Origin: Lama glama
Lineage: Eukaryota
DNA: 64,000 nucleotides
Direction: 5' to 3'
Assembly (NCBI GenBank): GCA_028534125.1
Contig: CM052816.1
Location: 124,001 to 188,000 of the forward strand
Each line of letters opens with the position of its first letter. Within the stretch, counting starts at the first letter, position 1. Of this stretch, positions 13,922-56,877 are shown in pieces. The translations under genes and the position numbers were made by a program. The notes under the pieces were generated by a model, which was given only the letters and a program-made list of their open reading frames with translations, was not told the DNA's origin and ran no database searches.

Positions 13922-13927
13922 TTTATT
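13922..13927 (-). terminator. Polyadenylation signal AATAAA of WNT9A
   Basis: Plus strand TTTATT within an AT-rich block at the end of the putative 3'UTR, followed by an abrupt return to GC-rich DNA. Confidence 0.7.
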
Positions 13928-15089
13928 TAGTGTTTCCATTTGTTTCTGTTCTGTTACACAAGGCCGTTAAATAAATACATTCTCCAAGTCACTCGAGTAC
14001 ACATCTACTCGCTATACAGATGAGGTAGAGAAATTTATAGGCTCACATGAGGCTCTGAACGTTAAGTCCAGAGTCCCCGTGTGTGAATGCCCCTCTCCTC
14101 CCGCCCGCCGGGACCTGGCCCACCAAGCTCCGAGTCACGTCTGTGCACGCTGGGCAGAGAGCAGGTGGCCGGGACCGGCCTGGCCCTCAGCGTGGCTCTG
14201 CCCTGCGGCCCCCGCGCTGGGGTTGCGGGGGGTCTGAACCCCACCACAGAACGTGTGTTCTCTTAGACATCCTCTGCTGAACAGAAGAGAAGCATGTTAA
14301 AAAGAGGCTCCATCAGCGGGAGTTGCTTCTTCGCTTAGCAAGACATTCTGATATATATTTACGTATAAACAAATCAGCCAGCAGACGTTTTCAATCTGCC
14401 TTGTTAAAAAAAAATACTTTTCTTAATATTTATGTCATAGAGTTAAATGTGGTATTTGATTTAAAAAAAAAAAAAAAGAACCCTTCCTTTGACTTGCCGC
14501 CTTTCCAGACCCAGTAGTGACCGAGCTGCAGTCTTGTCATGGAAGCATGGCCAGCTCCGCGTGCTCCGGGGCCCCAGCGAGTGGGGGTGCTTGGAACAAC
14601 TGAGATGCACCCTAGCCTGTCGCCACCCTCCCCAGCCAAGCGTGAAGGGAGCACGCCCTGGCTACCTCCCAAGGGACATGCCTCGGCTGCACAGCTCTGG
14701 CAGCATGCAGGCGCTCAGGGGCTGTTCTCTGAACCACAGGAGAATAAACTTTACTATTTACACTATAAAACAGGGACAAAGAGACCCACATCCACATAAA
14801 TAGGTTTTCTTTGCAAAACAGTCCCTAAGGTCCCCAAGGCCTCCCTGGACTCTGAGGAACCCCCTCACTCAGTAGTTCCCTCCTCCACGCTGCCACCCAG
14901 CTCTGGGCTTTCCCAGACCCCGGTCCACACCCGCTCAGAGCAAAGCCATGGAGCTGAGCAGGATGGGCCTAGGGCTGAGAACCCTACCAACAGGGGGAGA
15001 AGAGCCCCACGCCTAGGAAGGGCACAGGGCAGGAGCCACACCCCAGCCAACCACTGACCACGCCAACATGGTACGCATAAGCCCCCACA

Positions 15090-15436
15090 TCGCACACGTG
15101 CACACATGTGCTCACGAACATGCATGCATGCACACACATCACAGATGCTCACACATGCACACAGACACTGCACACACGAACGTGGTTGCACACATGCGTG
15201 CATCGACGCATGTGCACGCACACCCACGTGCAGCTATGCTCACGCATTCTCATGCATGAATACACACCACGTGCTCATACACAAGCATGCATACACACCC
15301 ATGCACACACACACATCACACACTCACCCACGTGCACTCATGCATGCACGCTTATGCATTCACACAAACATGCTCATGCACATACACGCCACATACTCAT
15401 GCATGCAGTCACGCACACGTGTGTGCACACACACTC
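15090..15436. repeat. Degenerate (CA/TG)-rich alternating purine-pyrimidine tract in the WNT9A 3'UTR
   Basis: cacacatgcacaca-type low-complexity sequence. Confidence 0.9.
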
Positions 15437-16496
15437 AAACCAAATCAGGTCAGTGCTGGCCATCCTTTTCCCTCCCCTGCAACAAAAACCCAGCATGGCC
15501 AAGGAGAACAGCCTTCCATCTGCCAAATCATATTCCCCAGACTCTCTTGGCTCATGTCTGTCCCCATCCCAGCTCCCTCACAGTGACAGAGAGCAAGCTG
15601 TGCATTCTTCATGACATGAACCCTCCAAGGGGCTGGCCCTGCCCCTTCTGCCTCTGCTCACTCCTGTGGGAGAACAGGTCACCTTCTGCCATCCCCAGGA
15701 TCTGCGCTGAGGAGTCTGAAGTGCGGCGCCATGTGCCCACAGGGTGCGGAGCAAGGCCCGCCCACTTCCCAGGCCAGCCTCACTGCGGGTAGCTGACACG
15801 AACCATGGGACCTGGATTCCAGAAACCCTAAAGGTGGTGGCCAGACACAGCTTGCTTCACTTCTTTATAAACAACAACGACCATGTCTCTCTTGATTTAG
15901 TGGTTTCAAACGACAAAGCAGATCAGGCAAACAGGTTCGGAGGGGGCGCGGAGGGGAGGGAGAAAGGGGTCCCCCAAGACGAGGCTCTGCCGAGAGGAGC
16001 AGAAGCCACGGCCTGAGAGACTGCAGGGACGGAGAAAATAATAATTATATATTAGTTAAATAAAAATAACTTAAAAGTCACTGATATCACTCCAAAGAGA
16101 AGTACTCGGTGTCAGAGGGGGCCAGCAGTATACCTCCCGCACCCGGGCGGCTGGGCACCTGCTTTCTCTCCTAGTGGTTTGCTCTCTAAGCCAGTGCTGG
16201 TGCGGGACAGCCCTCAGGCAGCCCACGCAGAGGCCACGTGGTCACAAAGGCGTGCCCGCTGCTCCTCAGAGGGCACCCAGGACGGGAGGGGTACCGCACT
16301 GCGGGAACTGGTGACTTAGGGGGACACAGCTTGGAAAGCATCTGTGCAAAGCTCTCAGGTCACAGGGAGGGACAAGCAGAAAGGATGCGAAGGTCAGACT
16401 GGGCCTTTGGGATGAGGAGACAGAGGGTCAGAGATGGCCAACCCAGCCAGCCCCTAGGCCTCTGCCCCGCCTTAAACCCAGATGTGCTGGGGGCAT

Positions 16497-16873
16497 CCAG
16501 GCCAGGGGCTCAACCCCTGTAGGTGGACGCCCCTCACACTGCACACACACTGCTGCACCCTAACAACAGCCTGGCCAGGCCCGGGGGCTCAGCCCCTGCA
16601 GGTGGACGCCCCTCACATTGCACACACTGCCTGCACCCCTGCGACAGCCTGGCCAGGCCCGGGGGCTCAGCCCCTGCAGGTGTAGACCTCCTCGCGCTGG
16701 GTGCACTGCCTGCACCCCTGCTGCAGCCTGGCCAGGCCCCGGGGCTCAGCCCTTGCAGGTGTAGACCTCCTCGCGCTGGGTGCACTGCCTGCACCCCTGC
16801 CGCAGCCTGGCCAGGCCCCGGGGCTCAGCCCTTGCAGGTGTAGACCTCCTCGCGCTGGGTGCACTGCCTGCAC
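16497..16873 (-). repeat. 78-79 bp tandem repeat (5 copies) derived from the WNT9A CDS end, stop codon and first 3'UTR bases
   Basis: Stop-equivalent TCA on plus strand at 16825, 16746, 16667, 16589 and 16510; three near-identical and two diverged copies. Confidence 0.95.
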
Positions 16874-17307
16874 TCCACATAGCAGCACCAGCGCACCTGG
16901 CACTGGCAGGGCCGGGTCACCACTCGGCTCTGTGTGTTGTGGCCGCGCCCGCAGCAGATGCTCTCACAGTTCTTCTCGCGGTGGCACCTCCGGCCAGCAG
17001 TGCCCGGGGAGAAGCGGCCGGCCAGGCAGAAGCTGGGTGAGTCATCCAGGTGCACTAGCTCCGGGGTGCGGGGTAGCGGGTCGCCGCCACCCGTCCCTGA
17101 GGCCCGGCCCCTTGGTGGCGAGATGGCGCCAGCCTCGCCGGTGGCCTCGTTGGTGGTGCTGCCCACCTTGAGCGCCGTCTCGTACTTGTGCTTCAGGCGC
17201 TTGCCCACCTCGTGGAAAGGCGCCAGCTGCCGCCAGCACGTCCTCACAGTGCACGAGCCTGACACGCCGTGGCACTTGCACGTGGTCTCCACCCCGGCCT
17301 TGATCAC
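16825..17307 (-). CDS. WNT9A: Wnt-9a coding exon 4 ([25 protein letters not shown]...[12 protein letters not shown])
   Basis: [10 protein letters not shown] lipidation motif, CCGRG and C-terminal Cys cluster; acceptor ccaccag|GTG; TGA at 16827-16825; exons sum to 95+257+263+483=1098 nt. Confidence 0.97.
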
Positions 17308-19504
17308 CTGGTGGGAGGGAGGGAGGCGGGCATGAGGGCAGACTCTGGGCAGACTGGAGACCAGTCCCCGAGGACAACCGTCCGAGGGGCTGGAACGGCC
17401 ACTCACCCCAGGGCCAGACCTCATGTGCCTCTAGACAGGGGCCAAGGCCAGGGGTCACCACTGCTCATCAATTCCCTGGCTCACACACCTGTCCCTCCCT
17501 CTCCAAGCCACAGTCAGCCCAGGACAGAAATCCCACAGGCAGTACCACACCTCCAGCGTGGCCACTGCGGTAACCCAAACCCACCTCCTGCATCGTCAAG
17601 GCCCTCCCTTCCCATCCCTGCATCCAGGGCTGCCCTCTGCAAGGGCAGGGCACGTCACCACTCTGGCCCTGATGGCAACACCCTACCAGGACCTCATAGT
17701 CTGCTGTCAGCAGCTGCTTCCTTAAAAAGGTGAGGACAAGCAAGCTGGCTGGCCTGGTGGCAGAAATGGCCACCAGAATCTATGTCTGAGCTGACCCGTG
17801 TCCCTGCCTAAGCACAGAGACGAGATGCTACTACATGTGCAGGTGCTGCGGCCCCCACCCCGTCCAGCCCTGGTAAGAGTAACATGGAAGGACGGAGAAA
17901 GCCTCTGGAGAGGCCCAGATGGGAGGGGGCTACACCCACCCCCACATGCAGGCAGGAGCACGCACATCACGGCCCAGCACCGACACTCCACTCTAGGTCT
18001 GGGAAGCTGCCTGAGACCCAGGCTGGGTCCTTCCCCTCCCAGGACTTGGGTTCCCACCTGCAAAGCCGTGGAGTCAGGCCAGCTGCCCCATGGGGGCCTC
18101 CGGCCTGACTTCCCACATGGGGGTCCCTAGAGGGACATGGGGAAGAAGAATGGCAGAGGAAGGGGAGGTCCCTCTCCCAGTGGGCCCCAAGCCAGGCCTG
18201 AGCTCCCACACTGCCCCCAGGGAGAGTCGGCTCAAGGGGGATTAAGAAACATAGCTGCCCTCCAGCCAGGCAACAGAAGAGTCACATTTAATGATACTTT
18301 GCTGAGAAACCCGGACAAATTTAATTAAAATGCGGCTTACCCAGGCCCAGTGGAGCTAATGGAGCACTTTCATATTCTGACTTTTCATTAATAGCTTACA
18401 AAAGGGCAAGTGCAGAGGAAAAGAAAGGCCTCGCCTGGGGATTTAATCAGCCCGCACCCCTCCCCAGAGGGTGGAAGGAGGGGCAGAGCCCCCGTCGAAA
18501 AGGGGGAAATTGATTCTTTAATAAGTCTGCACCTCAGAACTCCAGCTTCTCAACAAAGAGGGGCTCAGAGTGGGGCTGGCATTAATTACCTCACCCCTCT
18601 TCTAGCCCTGGGGCTGAGGTTCCACATCCCACGGGGCTGCAGCAGGTCCCCCTCCCAGCCCCTGACGGTCCCACCGGCCAAGCTGAGCCTTGGAAGGCGT
18701 CTGATGGCCCATGTCATGCAGGGACTAAGAGGCTGGGGTGCTCTCTCTGCAGTGAGGGTGATGGAGCCCGATGCCCCCTCCAGTGGCGGGCAGGGTACCC
18801 CTGGCCCAGTCATGCTTGCCACCAGCAGCTCCCAGAACGGCCCAGCCAGAGAGCTGAAATGGTCCTTCTCACCTGGAGTCTTTTGTTTCAGTTTCCCTCG
18901 GAACAAAGTCCTGACCATGGACAAGGCCCCTGAGGTAGAAGCAGCCTCCCCAGCTGCGGCCAGCCACACCCCGAGCCCTTCCCTGGGAGCCCTGAGCCAC
19001 ACTTCTCCGGCTGCCGCCCAGCTGGGCCGCTGGTAACGGGGCTGCCCACCCCTCAGCCCTGGGAGGTAGGTAGGGCCCAGTCTGCTGACCCCCTGATTAT
19101 ATGCTGCCCAGCAGGGAGATCCTCCTCGTGGCCTTGACCACCCAGGACCAGACGCAGACCCACCTGCCTCCTCCCCAGCCTGCAGCAAGTAGGCCTTCTG
19201 GGTTCACACAACCATGAGAGACCATGGGGCGCCCCTCCACGGGGCACCACAGGGCACCCCATCACAAATAGCACCCCTGCCTATCTGGCAAAAAATGAGC
19301 CTTGTAAGCAGGAGGACTGGAGGCCCTGGCTGTCACCACGTGGCTGGAACAGAGACACAGAGGCAGCTGCCTCCACCTCCTCCCAGCCCCCCAGCCCTCT
19401 CCCCCACCAGTGCCCCTTCCGCAGCCCCTGTGCCCCACCCCTTACGCACATCCGGCCCCACCCTCCTCTCTGCCCTTTCCCACCCCGCGCCCCGCCCCGC
19501 TTGC

Positions 19505-25094: not shown

Positions 25095-25790
25095 AAAAAG
25101 ACTGGCGATTGGCTGAATACACGGGGTCCATCTGAGCCACAGAGCTTTCAGAAGGCATCAGAAAAGCCAAAGCCCGGCTGCTGTGCACACTCAGTGCACA
25201 GACACAGCCCTCTCTCCGCAGAGAACCTACGTGCACATCTGTGGGTGCCAGGGCGACCCGGCACAGAGGTGGCCTGGGGTGGAGGAAACATGTTCTTCTC
25301 CCAATAGCCTGTGAGCCACTCACCCGTTGTCCCAGGTGCACGTGATCCATCAAAACAGCAAAGTTCAACATACAGCAAGCAGTGTGGGGGAGCCCCAAAC
25401 AGGCTCTTGGCCCTGTATGCCAGCCGGGAGCAGTGAGCCTCTGCCCGCACAGCCTGCCTCCGGCTGCCTGGCACAGCACAGTCCCCGCCAACGCCCAGCT
25501 GCCCATACCAGCGCATCTGCCACCGTGCCCAACACAGCTGCTGCTGACTCCCCCTCAACCCCCCCCCCTCCGGTGGATGCCTGATCTGAGACAGGCAGGC
25601 GGGTGCGCACACAAGCCTGCCCAGGACGTGAGCTGGCTGCCCATAGGGGGCATCCCCTCAGCAGGCAGGCAGGGAGCCCCCGCCCCTGCCTCACCTGACT
25701 GACCCCTCCCAGTGCTGGACCCACTTCTGGGAAGAAATGACAAGGAGACCTACGTGTCCGTCTGGCACTTTTTAACATTCATGTATTTTC

Positions 25791-30925: not shown

Positions 30926-33900
30926 CACACTTCTGAGGGCTTGCCCCCCTGACCAGCCTGCAGCAGCTCTACAGAGACCACCTGCCAGCCCTGGGGGGGC
31001 AGGAAAGATCCCAGGACAGACAGAGCTGGGTCTAGGGACGCCTAACCCCCTCTGTGGGCCAGGCCTGAGGTTATCATGCCTGACTGCTTGGGGACTAGTA
31101 GGGCAGCCCCTCTGAGCACCTAGGCAGTCGCACATCCTCACACCTGCCCCCCGAGGACAGCCAGGTAGCAGGATGGGCACTGCTGGATGAGGGTGGGTGC
31201 AGGTGTGGCCCACGCCGGACATGGGACCGTCACTGTCCCACACTACGAAGCCCCTGGAATGCCTCACTCCATCCTGCAAATAGTTGGGGGGGTGGGGACA
31301 GATTCCAGTGGCCCTTCCTCCTGCCAACAGGCCCAGCCACCCCAAACCCTGCTCCCCAGACACAGGGAGCAGAGACCCTGGGCTGGGCAGAAGCAAAAAA
31401 GGACAGTGTTCCAGAAGCCACAGTGCCCTGCCAAGGAAACCGCATCCCCGCCGGACAGCATTTAATTTCTGTGTGAATCAAATTCAAAACAAATTCCAGT
31501 GCTAAGAAACTGACTCTGAGATAACCTTCCATCCTCCCGGGCCTACAGCCTCCCGTGCGGGAGGTGGGCGTGAGTGTAGGGTGGGCGCAGGCACTGCCAG
31601 AGCCCAGGCTCCACCATCACCTCACCAAGGAGGAGGTGAGGCAAAGGGACGGGGGTGAGCAGGGCAAGAGGGCAGTCCCCCGTTCACAGGTCACACTGCG
31701 GCTGTCACCTCGGACAGCTGTGAGAACTGCCAGGCCCCAACTTTCCTACCTCACAGGGCCCCAACATTGCAGAGCGTGAAGCGCTCTTGATCAACCATCA
31801 GCTCCATCACTGGCCGGCTCCTCAAGGCATCGTCTGGCCCGGGCCTGGCCACCCTGGGAGTCAGCTGGCAGACACAGGACTCTGCAAAATCCTCTACACT
31901 GGAACTCACAGCACTGCCCACCAGGCCTGGCATCCACAAGACTAACAGAATTGTGCCCATCCACACTGGCCCCTGAAGCAAGCAGAACCCATGGGAACCC
32001 CAGACCCTGAGGGCCACCAGCCAAGTGCCCCCTTTCCAGTGCAGGATGGTGGAGCCAAGATCAGAGAATGGCAGGCCAACGGGCCCCAGGAGTGTGGTGG
32101 AAGATGCAGGGGACCCCCAGGTTCACTGGCTGCTGTTGAGGAGAAGATGGGCAGCAGTGGCTTCACGGAGGAACCAGAGTGGCCAGGCCGCCCCTGTGCC
32201 CTAGTCACCACACCCCCAGGCCTCACAGATGGCCACAGACCCACCACAAGGAAGGACAGGCGGGAAACAGGGCAGGTGCTTGGAAAGCCACAGAGCCCCC
32301 TCTCATGACTACCAGCATCATGTCGACGAGCAGTTTGCTTCCTGGAGCTGGCCTGCAGGGTGCCCAGCACTGTGCCTGACACAGATGGGGGACACTGGGA
32401 TAGCCCCAATCAACAGCCCACCCTGGGGTGGCCCGGGGCAGCCCCTGCTGCTCCCTCTGTCCAGGAGGCAGCCAGCTCTGATGTGCTCTGGTCTGGGAGC
32501 CCCTGGCAGTCTCTGCTCTCGGGCCAGACCACTTCCCTGGCCACGTCTACCTCAGGTATCGCTAAGAAAAACAAACACAGCTTGAGGCTTGCCTTTTTCC
32601 ATTCCCTCGTCCGGCTGCCGGCCTCGAGGTACAGGGCCTGCCAGCTGGGCGGCCGGGTTTCCTCCTGCGGCCAGAGGCACCAGGCCAGCCAGGAACCTCG
32701 CTGGGAGGGGCAGGGGAGGTTGGCGGGCCATGCCCGCGGGTCACGGAGCCAGGCAGCCAGCACACCACCCAGGTCGACACTGCCCAGTGTGGCGCTGCCC
32801 TCCTCCAGAAGCCCTGGCACAGCCACCTGCCACCCGGTCTAGCCTGCAGATGTCCCTTAATGATCAGCCCCTGCAGGAAAACAGGCTGGTCATCACCCAG
32901 CCCACGCTACCAAGTCCCACCCCTGATGCCAGCTCAGACCTGCTAAGCGGCACAGCCAGGCACCTGCCCCCACCTCCCCAACCCTTACCCGATGGGGTCC
33001 TTGCCCCGCCTCACAGCTGCCCCCAGGAGCTCCAGTGAAGCCCTCTGTCCTCTGCACGGCACCCACAGCAGCAGTGCCCCCAAAGCAGCAGGTCGGCTGC
33101 ACCCGGCCACCATCTGTGCACTGGAAGGTGGTGTGGCCCAGCCAGCAAGTGTTGAGTACAGCACGGTGGAGGTCAGGGCCAGGGGTGGGCAGGGGGCCAG
33201 CCCACCTGGTGAACGGGCACCTCGGACCCCACACCAGGCTCCTGCTGCAAAGTCAGGAAGCAGAGGGGAGACTGGATCCTCCAGAGGCCTCAGGAGCACG
33301 AGCCCCAGAGCGGTTTGGGGAAGACCCGACGAGGGACCCTCGGGGGCTCCCCAGAGCTGAGCTACCGGTAAAGAGCGATGCTGCTGGGCTACCCTTGGGC
33401 TTCCTGGAAGAGGCAATAGCAGAGGCAGACCCTGGAGGACGGGTAGGCCCACGAGGACAGTGGCCCTGCTACTCACCCACCAGAGGCCAGCTTCCAAGCG
33501 GGGGCCTGGCCTCACCCACTTGCCAGACAACTGCGCCTCCTCTGAAACCTCCCACAGCTTGCTGAGCCAGGGTGGGTACCGCAAGGGCACTCCCACTGCT
33601 GGGACAATACACAAAGGGAGCCAGGCGTCCCCCCCCCCCCAGGCTGGGATTAAGGGGGCTGAGTGCCGGCCCTGCTGACAGGTGTCATTTTTCTGCAGCC
33701 AGGAAAGCCAAACTTATCAGCTCATCGCTCCTCCCCGAATCCAGAGCCTCCCCGCCCCCCCCCCCCCCGGGGAGGAATCGTGTGCATGCATTCTTTTCCA
33801 GGAGAAGAAATACCTACACGCTTCCATTGTCCCAGCTATCACAAGGCCCCTGAGGCGGGTGGTGGGTGCCACCCTCAGCATGGGGCCACCCTGGAGCCTG

Positions 33901-41540: not shown

Positions 41541-44429
41541 ATCCAACTCCAGGGAGCCGTGTCTTTTTCTAAGTTGTGATGTCATGCTGTGAAAGTCTCT
41601 GCCCGTGGCTCTGCCTCTGTGCAGATGTGACCAGCCTCACGTCATTTCCCACTCCAGGGACGACTCCTGTGGGAGGGGGCCCTCTGATGCCCTCATCTGC
41701 CCACATCACATTCAGCCACCTCACCAATAGGGCTGGCACAGCAAAGAGAACACAGACCAAAGCAGCCCCAGCCCACCCAGGCTGCAGGGCCTTGGGGACG
41801 CTGTGCCATCCCCAGCTCCAAGGGCCTCAGCGCAGCCCACAGGGCCTCCACCTGAAGGCCTGGCTCCCACACCCGGGAAGTGTGAGGCATGGGGTGAGGG
41901 GGGCACAGAGTGATGACATGTTTAAAGGCACAGAGACTGTGTCCAAGAAAAATGAAGTGTGAGGTTGTAAATGTGTGTCTGGAAGGAGCTGCCAGCCTTA
42001 TAGAGCTCCCTTCCATGGGGAGTGAAGGGTTCTCATCCGGCCACCCAGCAAGTCCCAAGGAGGAAGATGGCCAGCTGAGGTCCCAGCCTGCGACTGGCAC
42101 AGCCACAGCTGGCACAAAGGGGACTGGAAAGATGAACGCCATCTGTGGACTTGGGAAGGAGGATAAGGTTGGAGTTATGCTTTCATGGGGGCTGTCAGCT
42201 CATGGCAGCTTGGGGGCATGCTAGCCCCTGTTTTCCAGTGCTGAGCCTCCCCCAGGTATCAGCAGGGGGAGAGGTTCTGAGAGACTCCTTCAGTCCAGGG
42301 AGTGGAGAACCAAGGCCTACAAGAGGACCAGGGTTTACTGGGCCATGCAGCATGGCAAGTGGTGACAGGAGCAGGGAGGGGGTGGGGATGGGGGTGAGGA
42401 TACACCTGAGGGTCTGGGAGGGGCTGCCCCACCCACTGCACCTGGGGTGATGGCAGCAGCTGAGGTGGTGCCACCAGCTACCCGCACCCCACCTGGACCT
42501 GGGGAGACAGGCTCCCTCTCACAGGAGTCTCCCAGACCTCAGACCTCCCCATCAGACCTGACTGCCCTGCCCCGCCCCTGCCTGCCTTCCCACCTCCCCC
42601 ACAGGCATTGGTGGGCCTCCCTAAACTGCAGGAGAAAGCCACAGAAGCTCTCCTGCTTACAGGTTTCCAGGTGCCCGTGCAGTCAGATCTCTTCAGAGGG
42701 GGGCCAGGTACATTCCACCTCTGTGCCCACAACTCCTGCCTCCCCCAAACCCAGCCCCAGCCTACATTTGCAGATCCTGGTTCCCTGCAACACTTCCGCT
42801 GGCCATCCCACACCGGCCTGGCCTCTCTTCTGTCCAGGGTGGAGAAGGAAGGTAAATTAATGTGGAACAGCCATTGACAGACCAGCACCTGGCTTGGTTG
42901 ACTGTGGGTGCTAAACCAAGGCCCAGAGAACTCGCAAGTCAGCCCACCAAAGGGCACAAAGTAAGCAAGAGGGTCAGACACCTGACCCCAGCCTCATTTT
43001 ACCAGCTAAGCCACCTCGCAGATAATCTTGTTGGCCTCAGCACAGCATGAGGTGGGGGTGTTTTCCAAGGGGGTCAGACCTTTGGCTTCCAGCATAGCAC
43101 TTTCTGGCCAACGGCAAAGTGGCCCTATGTTTCTGTTAGAGAAGCCTGGGCTTGGGGCTTCCTTAGTCCCCCGGCCACAGCCACCTGGGCCTGCCTGACA
43201 CAGGCAAACCTTCTGGGAAAGGACATCCAGAGTACAAGGCAGGACAAGCTGTCACTAGTGCAGGGGCTGCAGCCACCCTGTGCAGCCCGAGGGCGAGCAA
43301 GGAGTGGTCCAGGCCGGGCTGTGTTGTCTCTACCCTGCACGTGTTCCTAACCAGAGCTGTGGCAGTGATTTCCAGGGGGCTGATGGGCACATCCCCAAGA
43401 GGACCACATCAGTGCCAGAGAGGGGCATATGCTCCAAAACAAAGCCTGCCCTAAGAAGGGTAAAATAGAGGCGGTAGGCTGTGAAGGGTCACTACCCCGT
43501 TTGCAAACCTCCTGCTTCATGGAGGCCCTGGCCCTGTGATGTGCCAGAAGCACGCACAGCAATGAATCCCTGAGCACGCTGACACCCAGCTATGCAGAAG
43601 GGGCTGCCCAGGTCTCAGCAGAACAGCAAACTCCTGCAAAGCTAGGGGTGCCTACCATGACCCCAGGCTGGGTGAGGGCAGCCCACTTCCCGGGGTCAGG
43701 CCCACCCACATCTTCAAGGCCTAGTTTGGATGCAGCAGTGAAGCCTCGATTGTCAAATCCAGTGATCTCCTCAGTCCTTTCCTCCTAGGGCCAGAGACAA
43801 AGAGAGAGACAGAGACAAAGAGATGGAGGGGATGGAGGACAGGAGGAAGCCCACCTTCCCAGCTGACACCACCTAACTCCCCACCTGCTTTTCAGGCCTC
43901 AGTTTCCCAGCCAACAGCATGATGAGGATGAGGTATAGGGAGGATCCAGGAGGGCCAGGCTGGGGAGGTTGCAGGCCCAGATGCTGCCCAGAATGGGGAG
44001 TGGTTCTCTCAGGTGGTCTGGAAGGAGTGGGCGAACAGACGCTTATCAGAAAACATCGCCTAATTGGGGCCTAATTGGGAAGGTTTATGGGGCCAGGCAG
44101 GGGGGCTCCCTGGGGGAGACAGCAAAAGCCACTTATGAGTCATCTGAAACTGAGCCGGACAAAGAGCTCAAGGAGAAATGATCCCACCCAGCCTGCCAGC
44201 CATGGGTAGAATGAGCTCATGGGCTGTGGGGCAAATATGCGTGCATATGTGTGCGTGCGAGTGCGTGCGTGTGTGTGTGAAAGACAGAGAAGGAGAGAGA
44301 GGGAGAAAGAAGGAGGAGAAGCTGGTACTTACACAGCTGGGACTCAGAAGCTGAGCCCAGCAGATCCTCCTGTGCTGCCCCAACACTGCATGGCCAGACT
44401 GCCCCCTGCGGGTCAGCAATGGAAAGGCC

Positions 44430-44812
44430 CAGTATCTCAACCAACATCCTGGTCCAGCAATCTAGTCAGCATCTTGGCCAGCATCCAGTTCAGCATCCCA
44501 GCCAGCATCCTGGCCAGCATCCAGTTCAGCAACCTTATCCAGCGTCTAGTTCAGTATCCTGGTCAAGCATCCTGGCAAGGATCCAGTTCAGCATCCTGGT
44601 TAGCATCCGAGTCAGCATTCAGTTCAGGTTTCTGGTCCAGTGTCCTGGCCAACGTTCAGTTCACCATCCAGCTCAGCACCTTGGTCTAGCATCCCAGCTA
44701 GTATCCAATTCAGCATCCAGTTCAGCATCTCAGCCCACATCTAGCTTAGCATCCTTGTCCAGCATCCTAGCCAGCATCCAGTTCAGCATCCCAACCAGCA
44801 TCCTGACCAGCA
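44430..44812. repeat. Degenerate minisatellite with 12-bp subunit CAGCATCCnnnn and 36-bp higher-order unit
   Basis: Repeated ccagcatccagttcagcatcccagccagcatcctgg-type units, e.g. at 44478-44530 and 44771-44812. Confidence 0.88.
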
Positions 44813-44959
44813 TGAACATACCCTCTCTGCAGAGCCCAGCACAGGACCCTTCCATGTCCTTTGGGAAGATCTCGAATGGACATAGAGCTTATTCTTCACA
44901 GTGGGACGCCATCTGTTCGCACCATCTCATCCTCTGTGAGATGTGTGTTGGAGACTTGG

Positions 44960-51369: not shown

Positions 51370-51869
51370 NNNNNNNNNNNNNNNNNNNNNNNNNNNNNNN
51401 NNNNNNNNNNNNNNNNNNNNNNNNNNNNNNNNNNNNNNNNNNNNNNNNNNNNNNNNNNNNNNNNNNNNNNNNNNNNNNNNNNNNNNNNNNNNNNNNNNNN
51501 NNNNNNNNNNNNNNNNNNNNNNNNNNNNNNNNNNNNNNNNNNNNNNNNNNNNNNNNNNNNNNNNNNNNNNNNNNNNNNNNNNNNNNNNNNNNNNNNNNNN
51601 NNNNNNNNNNNNNNNNNNNNNNNNNNNNNNNNNNNNNNNNNNNNNNNNNNNNNNNNNNNNNNNNNNNNNNNNNNNNNNNNNNNNNNNNNNNNNNNNNNNN
51701 NNNNNNNNNNNNNNNNNNNNNNNNNNNNNNNNNNNNNNNNNNNNNNNNNNNNNNNNNNNNNNNNNNNNNNNNNNNNNNNNNNNNNNNNNNNNNNNNNNNN
51801 NNNNNNNNNNNNNNNNNNNNNNNNNNNNNNNNNNNNNNNNNNNNNNNNNNNNNNNNNNNNNNNNNNNNN
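51370..51869. other. Assembly gap (500 N)
   Basis: Exactly 500 N, flanked by L1 sequence on both sides. Confidence 0.99.
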
Positions 51870-55083: not shown

Positions 55084-55141
55084 CAGTGACTCAGAGGAGG
55101 GGTAGAAGGACCCAGTGACTCAGAGGAGGGGTAGAAGGACC
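55084..55141. repeat. Perfect 29-bp tandem duplication
   Basis: cagtgactcagaggaggggtagaaggacc twice, at 55084-55112 and 55113-55141. Confidence 0.95.
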
Positions 55142-56877
55142 GGGCATGCGTAGACTCAGCTGGATCCCATTGGCAGTGGGGAGGAAGAGGAACATTCCTT
55201 GAAAGAGAATGGCTCTCGCTACACATCGAAGAAGGGGCTCCTAACACAGTCACTGAGGTGACCCCTGGTCCAGAGTCCACAGGACCCCACAGGCTCCCTT
55301 TGCAAATAGGGGAACGAAGGTTGATGGGGGCAACGTGATGCGGGGTGCAGCCTGCCTCTTGTTTTCCAGCCCAGTGCTAACACTGGAGGGTTGTTGAGCC
55401 ACTCCCTACCTCAAGAAGCAGCCACTTGCCAGCTCAAGGTCTCTCCGTGGGGGCCCCCACACTCTGCAGGTCACATGGTGAGGCAAGGCTCAGGGGCTGT
55501 GGAGGAGCAGATGGTCCACATGAGGAGAGACATCATAGAAGAGCCTGCAGTTGGGATTTTTATTCACAGTTCTGCTCGCCTCAACTGCAAAACAGTGGCA
55601 TGGATCCCCGCTGCCCTTTCCTCCTAGAGTCATTGAAACTGATGGGATCTCCCACTGGCACGGGGCTGGCACAAGGTGGGGAAGCTGGGGAGATTTCTCA
55701 ACTTCGATGATTTTCCTCTCCCCAAATCACCCTGGCCCCTGTCTCCCTGGGCTACAGACAGATATGCAAACAGAGCTTTGCAGTGGGCTGGGAGCTGGAC
55801 AACTGACTGGCCACTCTTTGTGACCTTGGATAAGTCGCCTTCCCTCTCTGATCTTACCTTTCCTCATCAGCAAAAATCATAAGGCTTACCTAAGTTGTCA
55901 GAAATCCCTTCTGGTTTAAGAGGCTAGCAGCCCTCGGCAGACTCCGCGGTCTGTGGCCCAGAGTGAGGGCGCTCACAGCCCAAAGCGCCCAAGCTGCCAA
56001 TTCCCTTCTCTGGGGGGTGCGGGGAGAAAGTGGAGGCGTCAACACCTGGGCCCTAAGAAGAGGCAGACTGTTTCCCAATAGTGCCCTTCAGACACGTGGC
56101 TGCACCCTACACGCCCACCCTGCAGCTGTCCCCAGACAGGCCACCTCCATCCTGGCCGCTCGCCGTCCGCCCAGCTCCCAGCGGACCAGCAAGATGTAGC
56201 TCGAAGAGCCAGCCTCGAACGAACGGACCTCTCTAGCAAGGAGATGGACGAAAGGGAGCCGCAGCCCGACCACCTTGGGGCCAAGGGACAGAGCGCGCGA
56301 TAGAGCAGGAGCGAGAGCGGGACAGCGCGTCCCACGGTGAGCGCAGGGTGCGCGGGCCTCCAAACCTAACGCCCTTGAGTCCTGCGGGGGCGCGACCCGG
56401 GAGCTCAGAAGGGACACCTGCGGACCATGCACTCCCGGATACCCGCCGGCCGCCAGGCCAGATGCCCCTCTGGCGGAGCGCAACCCTCGGAGCCGGCGCA
56501 CACGCGCACCCCCGCGCACCCCGCGGCCACGGGAGGGGCCAGCGCCGCCGCCGCCGCTCTAGCTCCTAGGGCCCCGCCCGCCCCCTGCCCCGCCCCGCCC
56601 CGGCCCCGGCCCCGGCCCCGGCGGGCGCCCCCCGCGGCGCTGCCCCGCCCCCGCCGTCCCGCGCCGCCCCGGGCCCCGGCCCGCCGCCCGGCCGCCGGCC
56701 CACCTGGCGCAGCACCGCCCTCGGAGCCCGCGCACCCGCGCACACCCGCGCACCCCGCGCACCCCGCGGCCGCAGGAGGGCCCAGCGCCGCCACCCGCGA
56801 GCTCCCAGGGCCCGGCCCGCTCCGGCGCCCGCGCTCTCGGGGTGGACTCCTGGCCCTCCGAGATCTCCCGCCCGGCG

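Follow-up and report, generated by a model that had tools for sequence, protein, structure and literature searches.

The DNA analyzed is a stretch of 64,000 nucleotides (the window) of the Lama glama assembly GCA_028534125.1, corresponding to positions 124,001 to 188,000 of the forward strand of contig CM052816.1; unless a contig is named, coordinates refer to positions within this window. Alignment of four WNT9A proteins by tblastn placed the four coding exons of WNT9A at 39954-39859, 20800-20543, 19768-19490 and 17310-16828. The gene is read on the reverse strand, and its last coding exon, exon 4, followed by a TGA stop codon, occupies 16825..17310 (-) according to Pfam, tblastn and database matches. 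The WNT9A proteins matched region 17310-16828 at 97.5-99.4%, and the translation of exon 4 matched the Pfam wnt family PF00110 (2.6e-47) over profile positions 153-305 of 305. The closest database matches to the exon 4 protein are camelid WNT9A proteins (99%); WNT9A proteins of camelids and other mammals match at 94-99% and WNT9B proteins at about 58-65%, so that WNT9A orthologues score above WNT9B, as is proper for a WNT9A member of the Wnt9 subfamily. The protein tails point the same way, being of the type CRQC...YTCKG at the WNT9A locus described here and CQQC...YTCKH at the WNT9B locus of the same genome (L019).

A WNT3A-type last exon, with the tail ...YVSCQECARVYDVHTCK, was found at C1:223676-224155, on the opposite strand and about 60 kb past WNT9A exon 1, a WNT9A-WNT3A neighbourhood that we take to be the same as the human arrangement. 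Some predicted camelid WNT9A proteins (P0001, 550 aa; P0002, 516 aa; P0043, 401 aa) carry long N-terminal extensions, which by tblastn match the intronic or upstream regions 31754-32731, 25259-25636 and 43653-43920; these extensions are probably gene-model artefacts and not real exons. Other repetitive regions were also observed in the window. About 4.5 kb upstream of WNT9A exon 1, Tandem Repeats Finder (TRF) reported a degenerate tandem array at 44441-44813 with nested periods of 12, 36, 62 and 98 bp and 65-86% matches. At 55084-55141 a 29-bp sequence is duplicated in tandem without any mismatch (TRF, 2.0 copies and 100% matches), and very GC-rich, (GCCCC)n-like repeats are present at 56570-56768, in a block of 68% GC that resembles a CpG island.

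The end of the WNT9A coding sequence lies within a tandem array. TRF analysis of the window detected this array at 16497-16873, with a period of 79 bp, 4.8 copies, 90% matches, 1% indels and a score of 414, which is the top score among the arrays with a 79-bp period in the 64-kb window; a further TRF row with a 158-bp period is the same array reported at double period. Its repeatedness is far above chance expectation. The unit consists of 45 nt corresponding to the last 15 codons of WNT9A, the TGA stop codon and 31 nt of 3'UTR. The copies are arranged head to tail, the unit length falls within the range of roughly 10-100 bp that is usual for minisatellites, and the GC content of the array (0.708) exceeds that of the window (0.563). 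The initial annotation, made from the sequence alone, had reported a 79-bp unit present five times across the WNT9A stop, with TGA sites ending at 16825, 16746, 16667, 16589 and 16510, three near-identical copies and two diverged distal ones, and had proposed a TRF run as a check. TRF recovered the array, the unit alignment bore out the five copies, and all five TGA positions proved correct.

The units are numbered here in the direction of transcription, and all are on the reverse strand. Unit 1 (16794..16872, 79 nt) is the real coding end and contains the native TGA (16825..16827), which is the first in-frame stop. Unit 2 (16715..16793, 79 nt; TGA at 16748-16746) differs from unit 1 by a single G>A change at a CpG (position 72); its copy of the peptide is shifted by one frame from the native one and ends in ...YTCKG. 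Unit 3 (16636..16714, 79 nt; TGA at 16669-16667) falls in the remaining frame and has four differences from unit 1, including AAG>AGG, which replaces a lysine by an arginine (K>R). Unit 4 (16558..16635, 78 nt; TGA at 16591-16589) is old and decayed; compared with unit 1, it has 17 mismatches and lacks 1 nt. Unit 5 (16497..16557; TGA at 16512-16510) is partial, and the array fades out at about position 16497. Searches with WNT9A proteins (tblastn) detected two copies of the terminal peptide beyond the stop, at 16793-16749 (100%) and 16714-16670 (93%), each over 15 aa.

Pairwise comparison showed that the units fall into two age classes, units 1 to 3 and units 4 and 5. Identity to unit 1 falls with distance from it, being 98.7% for unit 2 (1 mismatch), 94.9% for unit 3 (4 mismatches), 78.2% for unit 4 (17 mismatches and 1 gap) and 78.3% for unit 5. 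Units 4 and 5 are 93.3% identical to each other (4 mismatches over 60 nt), and they have in common derived states, namely the 1-nt deletion and a GTGTG-rich centre replacing the coding-like centre. Because these two units are alike at 93% while being only about 78% identical to unit 1, and carry the same derived states, the copy from which they stem would have decayed first and been duplicated afterwards. The number of CpGs in units 1 to 5 is 4, 3, 4, 2 and 1, respectively, and the sum of TpG and CpA rises from 14 to 17 in unit 4; this loss of CpG with gain of TpG/CpA is as expected of unconstrained, methylated DNA. In addition, the unit alignment revealed that the divergence between units 4 and 1 is spread across the coding-like and the UTR-like halves, again as expected without constraint. 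For units 2 and 3 together, changes were found at 1 of 96 sites in the coding-like half and at 4 of 62 sites in the UTR-like half (Fisher p = 0.078), a non-significant difference that hints at conversion from the coding copy or at constraint like that acting on it.

The initial annotation also noted that the terminal peptide is present in all three reading frames, that both alternative frames are open over the real stop, and that the native frame remains open for 96 codons past it, to position 16534. These features are all seen in the stop-to-stop listing of reading frames. The frames 16746..16916 (-), of 56 aa, and 16667..16963 (-), of 98 aa, each end in a copy of the terminal 15-residue peptide, and the native frame is free of stops over the 96 codons of 16534..16824 (-), a stretch that is not a gene. 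They arise incidentally from the 3n+1 unit length and the high GC content. The peptide occurs in all three frames because 79 = 3x26+1 and three near-identical copies are present, and the scarcity of stops follows from the 71% GC of the DNA: at the composition of the array (70.8% GC) the probability of a stop is 0.021 per codon, and that of 96 codons being open is 0.13. Since three units make up exactly 79 codons, unit 4 is in phase with unit 1, and the native frame misses the TGA of unit 4 because of the 1-nt deletion in that unit. Programmed recoding, by frameshift or readthrough, is not supported, as no conserved extended product was found: the post-stop native frame had no homologue among 609 word-sharing candidates, and neither this frame nor three other ORFs of the array, antisense ones included, matched a Pfam family.

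As judged from its sequence, the array leaves the WNT9A protein unchanged, with translation predicted to end at the canonical residue, because unit 1 keeps the in-frame TGA and this is the first stop met. We surveyed the C-terminal tails of 82 of 120 listed homologous proteins. In 70 of these 82 proteins the tail ends exactly 15 residues past the motif C[RK]QC, and a second copy of the tail motif is present in none of the 82. The remaining 12 comprise five WNT9B-type proteins (CQQC) that end at the equivalent place, one protein with one extra residue, four with unrelated tails and a query coverage of just 86-87%, which look like different gene models, and two unnamed Logan-derived proteins that continue for 126 and 165 unrelated residues. 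Moreover, the terminal segment of WNT9A aligns to the very end of the solved WNT7A. A coding (exonic) VNTR can therefore be ruled out, given the first in-frame TGA inside unit 1 and the lack of a duplicated tail in the 82 homologues.

We then considered the proposal that a late frameshift would regain the Cys-containing C-terminus. This stands as far as the arithmetic goes, as the peptide is present in both shifted frames: copy 2 would terminate the frame entered through a 1-nt deletion in the last 30 codons, and copy 3 the one entered through a 1-nt insertion in the last 46 codons. In either case, however, at least 26 out-of-frame residues would separate the protein body from the regained peptide. 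According to PMC4068752, residues F331, W333, C335 and V337 of Wnt3a contact Frizzled, C334 and C335 form a disulfide, and mutations of the finger tip reduce Wnt3a activity. Transferred to WNT9A by means of the WCCYV motif, with the WNT3A tail as an aid, this finger tip would correspond to WCCYVEC, which is located just upstream of the repeated segment and outside the repeat. The repeated 15 residues would then form one strand of the disulfide-locked C-terminal finger, as suggested by that Wnt3a description (PMC4068752) and by the WNT7A alignment. A frameshift upstream of the repeat would consequently lose the finger tip, and one inside the repeat would place a long spacer in a disulfide-locked hairpin. 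Together with the lack of a second copy of the tail in all 82 homologues, this makes frameshift rescue as a function of the array implausible.

To place the array in its genomic context, the unit was searched for in the entire assembly (2.35 Gb in 1,072,352 contigs). Apart from one weak single-copy match, the unit is confined to the end of WNT9A. The exception (L003, C24:13068463-13068518) is a GC-rich sequence with 83% identity to 56-59 nt of the array across the boundary of two units (E 6e-6), a resemblance probably due to chance similarity in composition. An origin from a dispersed repeat was rejected, since this sole other genomic match is single-copy and without a tandem repeat.

A scan of the assembly for the Wnt domain identified 18 last-exon loci, and all 18 were analyzed with TRF. 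A recognisable Wnt tail was present at 16 of them, representing 14 distinct genes, as two pairs are mirrored duplicates; at the other two (L021 and L022) the stop positions are unreliable because the tails are not Wnt-like. Among the 16 loci, only WNT9A has a tandem repeat across the stop. TRF did not find one at the WNT9B locus, and at four Wnt loci short, weak repeats (scores 32-65) were detected within 300 nt, none of them spanning the stop. The mirrored loci belong to two contigs, C927915 (L006/L007 and L032/L033) and C1050131 (L009/L010 and L026/L027), in which Wnt exons occur twice in mirror image, with identical scores and with coordinates summing to a constant; most likely these are inverted duplications of whole regions that arose as an assembly artefact. 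A degenerate pattern of the coding end was found in none of the metagenome contigs and in none of the prokaryote-genome contigs searched. A broader version of the pattern matched one metagenome contig (L004), which encodes a fish-like WNT9A with a TAA stop; the 267 nt available past that stop contain no tandem repeat, and the sequence serves as an outgroup only.

Downstream of the stop, the only AATAAA or ATTAAA motif within 6.8 kb is located at 13922..13927 (-), 2,897 nt from the stop. It is a putative poly(A) signal that would end a 3'UTR of roughly 2.9 kb, and because no other such motif lies closer, the array probably constitutes the first approximately 300 nt of the 3'UTR. Folding of the array RNA is somewhat better than that of shuffled sequences (z -2.63; 1 of 100 shuffles was as good), which could reflect a functional structure or merely the presence of repeated, self-complementary GC-rich motifs. 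No Rfam family matched the array. In the same inferred 3'UTR, about 1.4-1.7 kb downstream of the stop, there is an imperfect AC/GT-rich stretch at 15085-15440 (TRF rows 15128-15327); sub-threshold matches to mir-297 and mir-3149 fall in this stretch and not in the array. The stretch may be the counterpart of the poly(AC) repeat in the 3'UTR of human WNT9A, whose length variation is associated with standing height in the UK Biobank (PMC11614882). Because of this association, repeats in the WNT9A 3'UTR are not necessarily inert.

Taken together, we consider it likely that the array is a neutral, lineage-specific, GC-rich minisatellite of the 3'UTR that arose by tandem duplication across the WNT9A stop, where neutrality is the default and not a demonstration. 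In the scenario that we favor, a 79-bp segment that starts 45 nt before the stop codon of WNT9A and extends 31 nt into the 3'UTR would have been duplicated in tandem, and the array would have grown in at least three rounds. An old duplication would have produced a copy that decayed neutrally, including loss of CpGs; this decayed copy would itself have been duplicated, giving units 4 and 5; and much later the coding-end unit would have been copied again, giving unit 3 and then unit 2. Copying may have occurred by replication slippage or unequal exchange, possibly together with gene conversion. Slippage driven by hairpins was rejected, as single units in the form of ssDNA are no more stable than shuffled sequences (z +0.56 to +1.90) and only one short imperfect palindrome is present. 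Purifying selection on the protein would hold unit 1 fixed, while each new copy would start out coding-end-like beside unit 1 and older copies would shift distally and decay, which would generate the identity gradient. Further copies would be extra 3'UTR only, with no function needed to account for them, and any effect would fall on the mRNA, which would carry about 300 nt of extra GC-rich 3'UTR straight after the stop. The neutral substitution rate in mammals is about 1-2 x 10^-9 per site per year. This rate would give units 2 and 3 an age between a few million and a few tens of millions of years, and units 4 and 5 one of several tens of millions of years or more, values that are orders of magnitude only, since gene conversion could have reset the clocks. 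The earlier suggestion that the array is old and persistently turning over is upheld to the extent that the layered history fits repeated turnover in this lineage.

Other explanations must be weighed against this reading. One is that the assembly inflates the copy number, unit 2 and/or unit 3 being a mis-assembled allele or a product of assembler slippage and the true array being shorter. The assembly is indeed very fragmented, with more than a million contigs, mirrored duplicate Wnt loci occur inside two of them (L006/L007 and L009/L010), and units 1 and 2, being one base apart, are hard to separate with short reads. The number of copies comes from this one assembly, and the fragmentation and the mirrored loci call for caution on its exact value. 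Against inflation, units 2 and 3 each have private differences, units 4 and 5 are too diverged to be an artefact, the assembly contains no alternative contig with the unit, and the nearest N run is more than 34 kb away from the array. The sole assembly gap in the window is a run of 500 Ns at 51370-51869. We therefore regard an inflated array as unlikely. Sampled words of a 1-kb stretch were present in 14 DNA runs with four organism labels at a share of 0.85-0.93, which says little on copy number, and in 5 RNA runs at a share of 0.47-0.53, which does not locate the transcribed part. A slightly greater, though still small, probability is assigned to the possibility that the array is a regulatory 3'UTR VNTR, in which the number of units varies and tunes the stability, localisation or translation of WNT9A mRNA via repeated structures or protein-binding sites. 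Its location, right where the inferred 3'UTR begins, and the folding result are consistent with such a role, and precedents are provided by the 40-bp 3'UTR VNTR of SLC6A3 (PMC12776774) and by the human WNT9A poly(AC) repeat (PMC11614882). On the other hand, the array matches no known RNA family and its distal units have decayed freely, CpGs included; WNT9A is also absent from all 10 supplementary files, out of 11, that were searched in a study of human gene-proximal VNTRs, an observation limited to those files and to human, and of little weight.

In a related reading, the stop region would still be active in this lineage and would vary in copy number. Exchange or conversion would reset the UTR copies and could write variants such as the K>R change of unit 3 into an otherwise invariant C-terminus, and the number of units could modulate WNT9A expression and thereby skeletal or joint traits, in parallel to the relation between the human WNT9A 3'UTR AC repeat and height. 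We hold this combination to be quite improbable. The least credible of the alternatives is that selection has kept the array as a frameshift buffer, that is, as a back-up C-terminus for WNT9A, to which we attach almost no probability. Each alternative frame runs without a stop into a copy of the peptide, one from 30 and the other from 46 codons before the native stop, but this arrangement follows arithmetically from the unit length of 3x26+1, and the lysine that is replaced by arginine in copy 3 corresponds to a position occupied by K in every Wnt9-type tail displayed. Any selection for guarding against rare mutations yet to occur should be negligible. Moreover, the shifted products would carry the 26 or more junk residues before the peptide, and those shifted before the last 15 codons would also lack the WCCYVEC tip, the region in which mutations reduce Wnt3a activity (PMC4068752).

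Read as a neutral minisatellite, the array provides a tidy example of a tandem duplication with an edge inside a coding sequence that leaves the protein untouched, as the first copy keeps the stop. It also calls for caution in annotation, for gene models can be led astray by peptide-like matches past a stop and by long open frames where GC content is high. Its length might serve as a marker within the 3'UTR of a skeletal-development gene. Should the array prove to vary and to influence WNT9A expression, it could be regarded as a candidate regulatory variant; the other repeat in the 3'UTR of this gene has been linked to human height (PMC11614882).

We searched the literature for accounts of comparable arrangements. 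Searches on tandem repeats, VNTRs and minisatellites of WNT9A (Wnt14) returned no account of the 79-bp array, those on WNT9A in camelids showed nothing relevant among the papers listed, and among the papers listed for tandem duplication, stop codon and minisatellite none dealt with a stop-straddling arrangement. The array resembles the hypervariable minisatellites of the Jeffreys type (33.15/33.6) in being GC-rich, in having a unit of tens of bp and in containing variant repeats with a polarity of identity. In contrast to these, however, it has neither the 33.15 consensus nor the 10-nt core. The core motif has 96 matches in the window at no more than 1 mismatch, none of which is in the array. 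Likewise, the 33.15 consensus, taken from PMC2235864, has 7 matches in the window at no more than 3 mismatches and none in the array. Classification as a Jeffreys core-containing minisatellite was rejected accordingly, there being no match to the core or to 33.15 within 16497-16873.

The array can further be compared with repeats that overlap, or lie next to, coding sequences. With the coding VNTR in exon 18 of PER3 it has in common that a tandem array overlaps coding sequence. Coding VNTRs such as that of PER3 add or remove residues, whereas in WNT9A the in-frame stop already falls in unit 1 and further units stay outside the protein. The human WNT9A poly(AC) repeat is located in the same gene and in the same region of the transcript, but it is a dinucleotide microsatellite away from the stop (PMC11614882), whereas a 79-bp unit lies over the stop in the present case. 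The 40-bp 3'UTR VNTR of SLC6A3 (DAT1), described in PMC12776774, likewise consists of head-to-tail units of tens of bp that are located in the 3'UTR and leave the protein unchanged. It is set apart from the WNT9A array in that the first unit of the latter includes the stop and the 15 codons before it, which makes its UTR copies pseudo-copies of the coding end.
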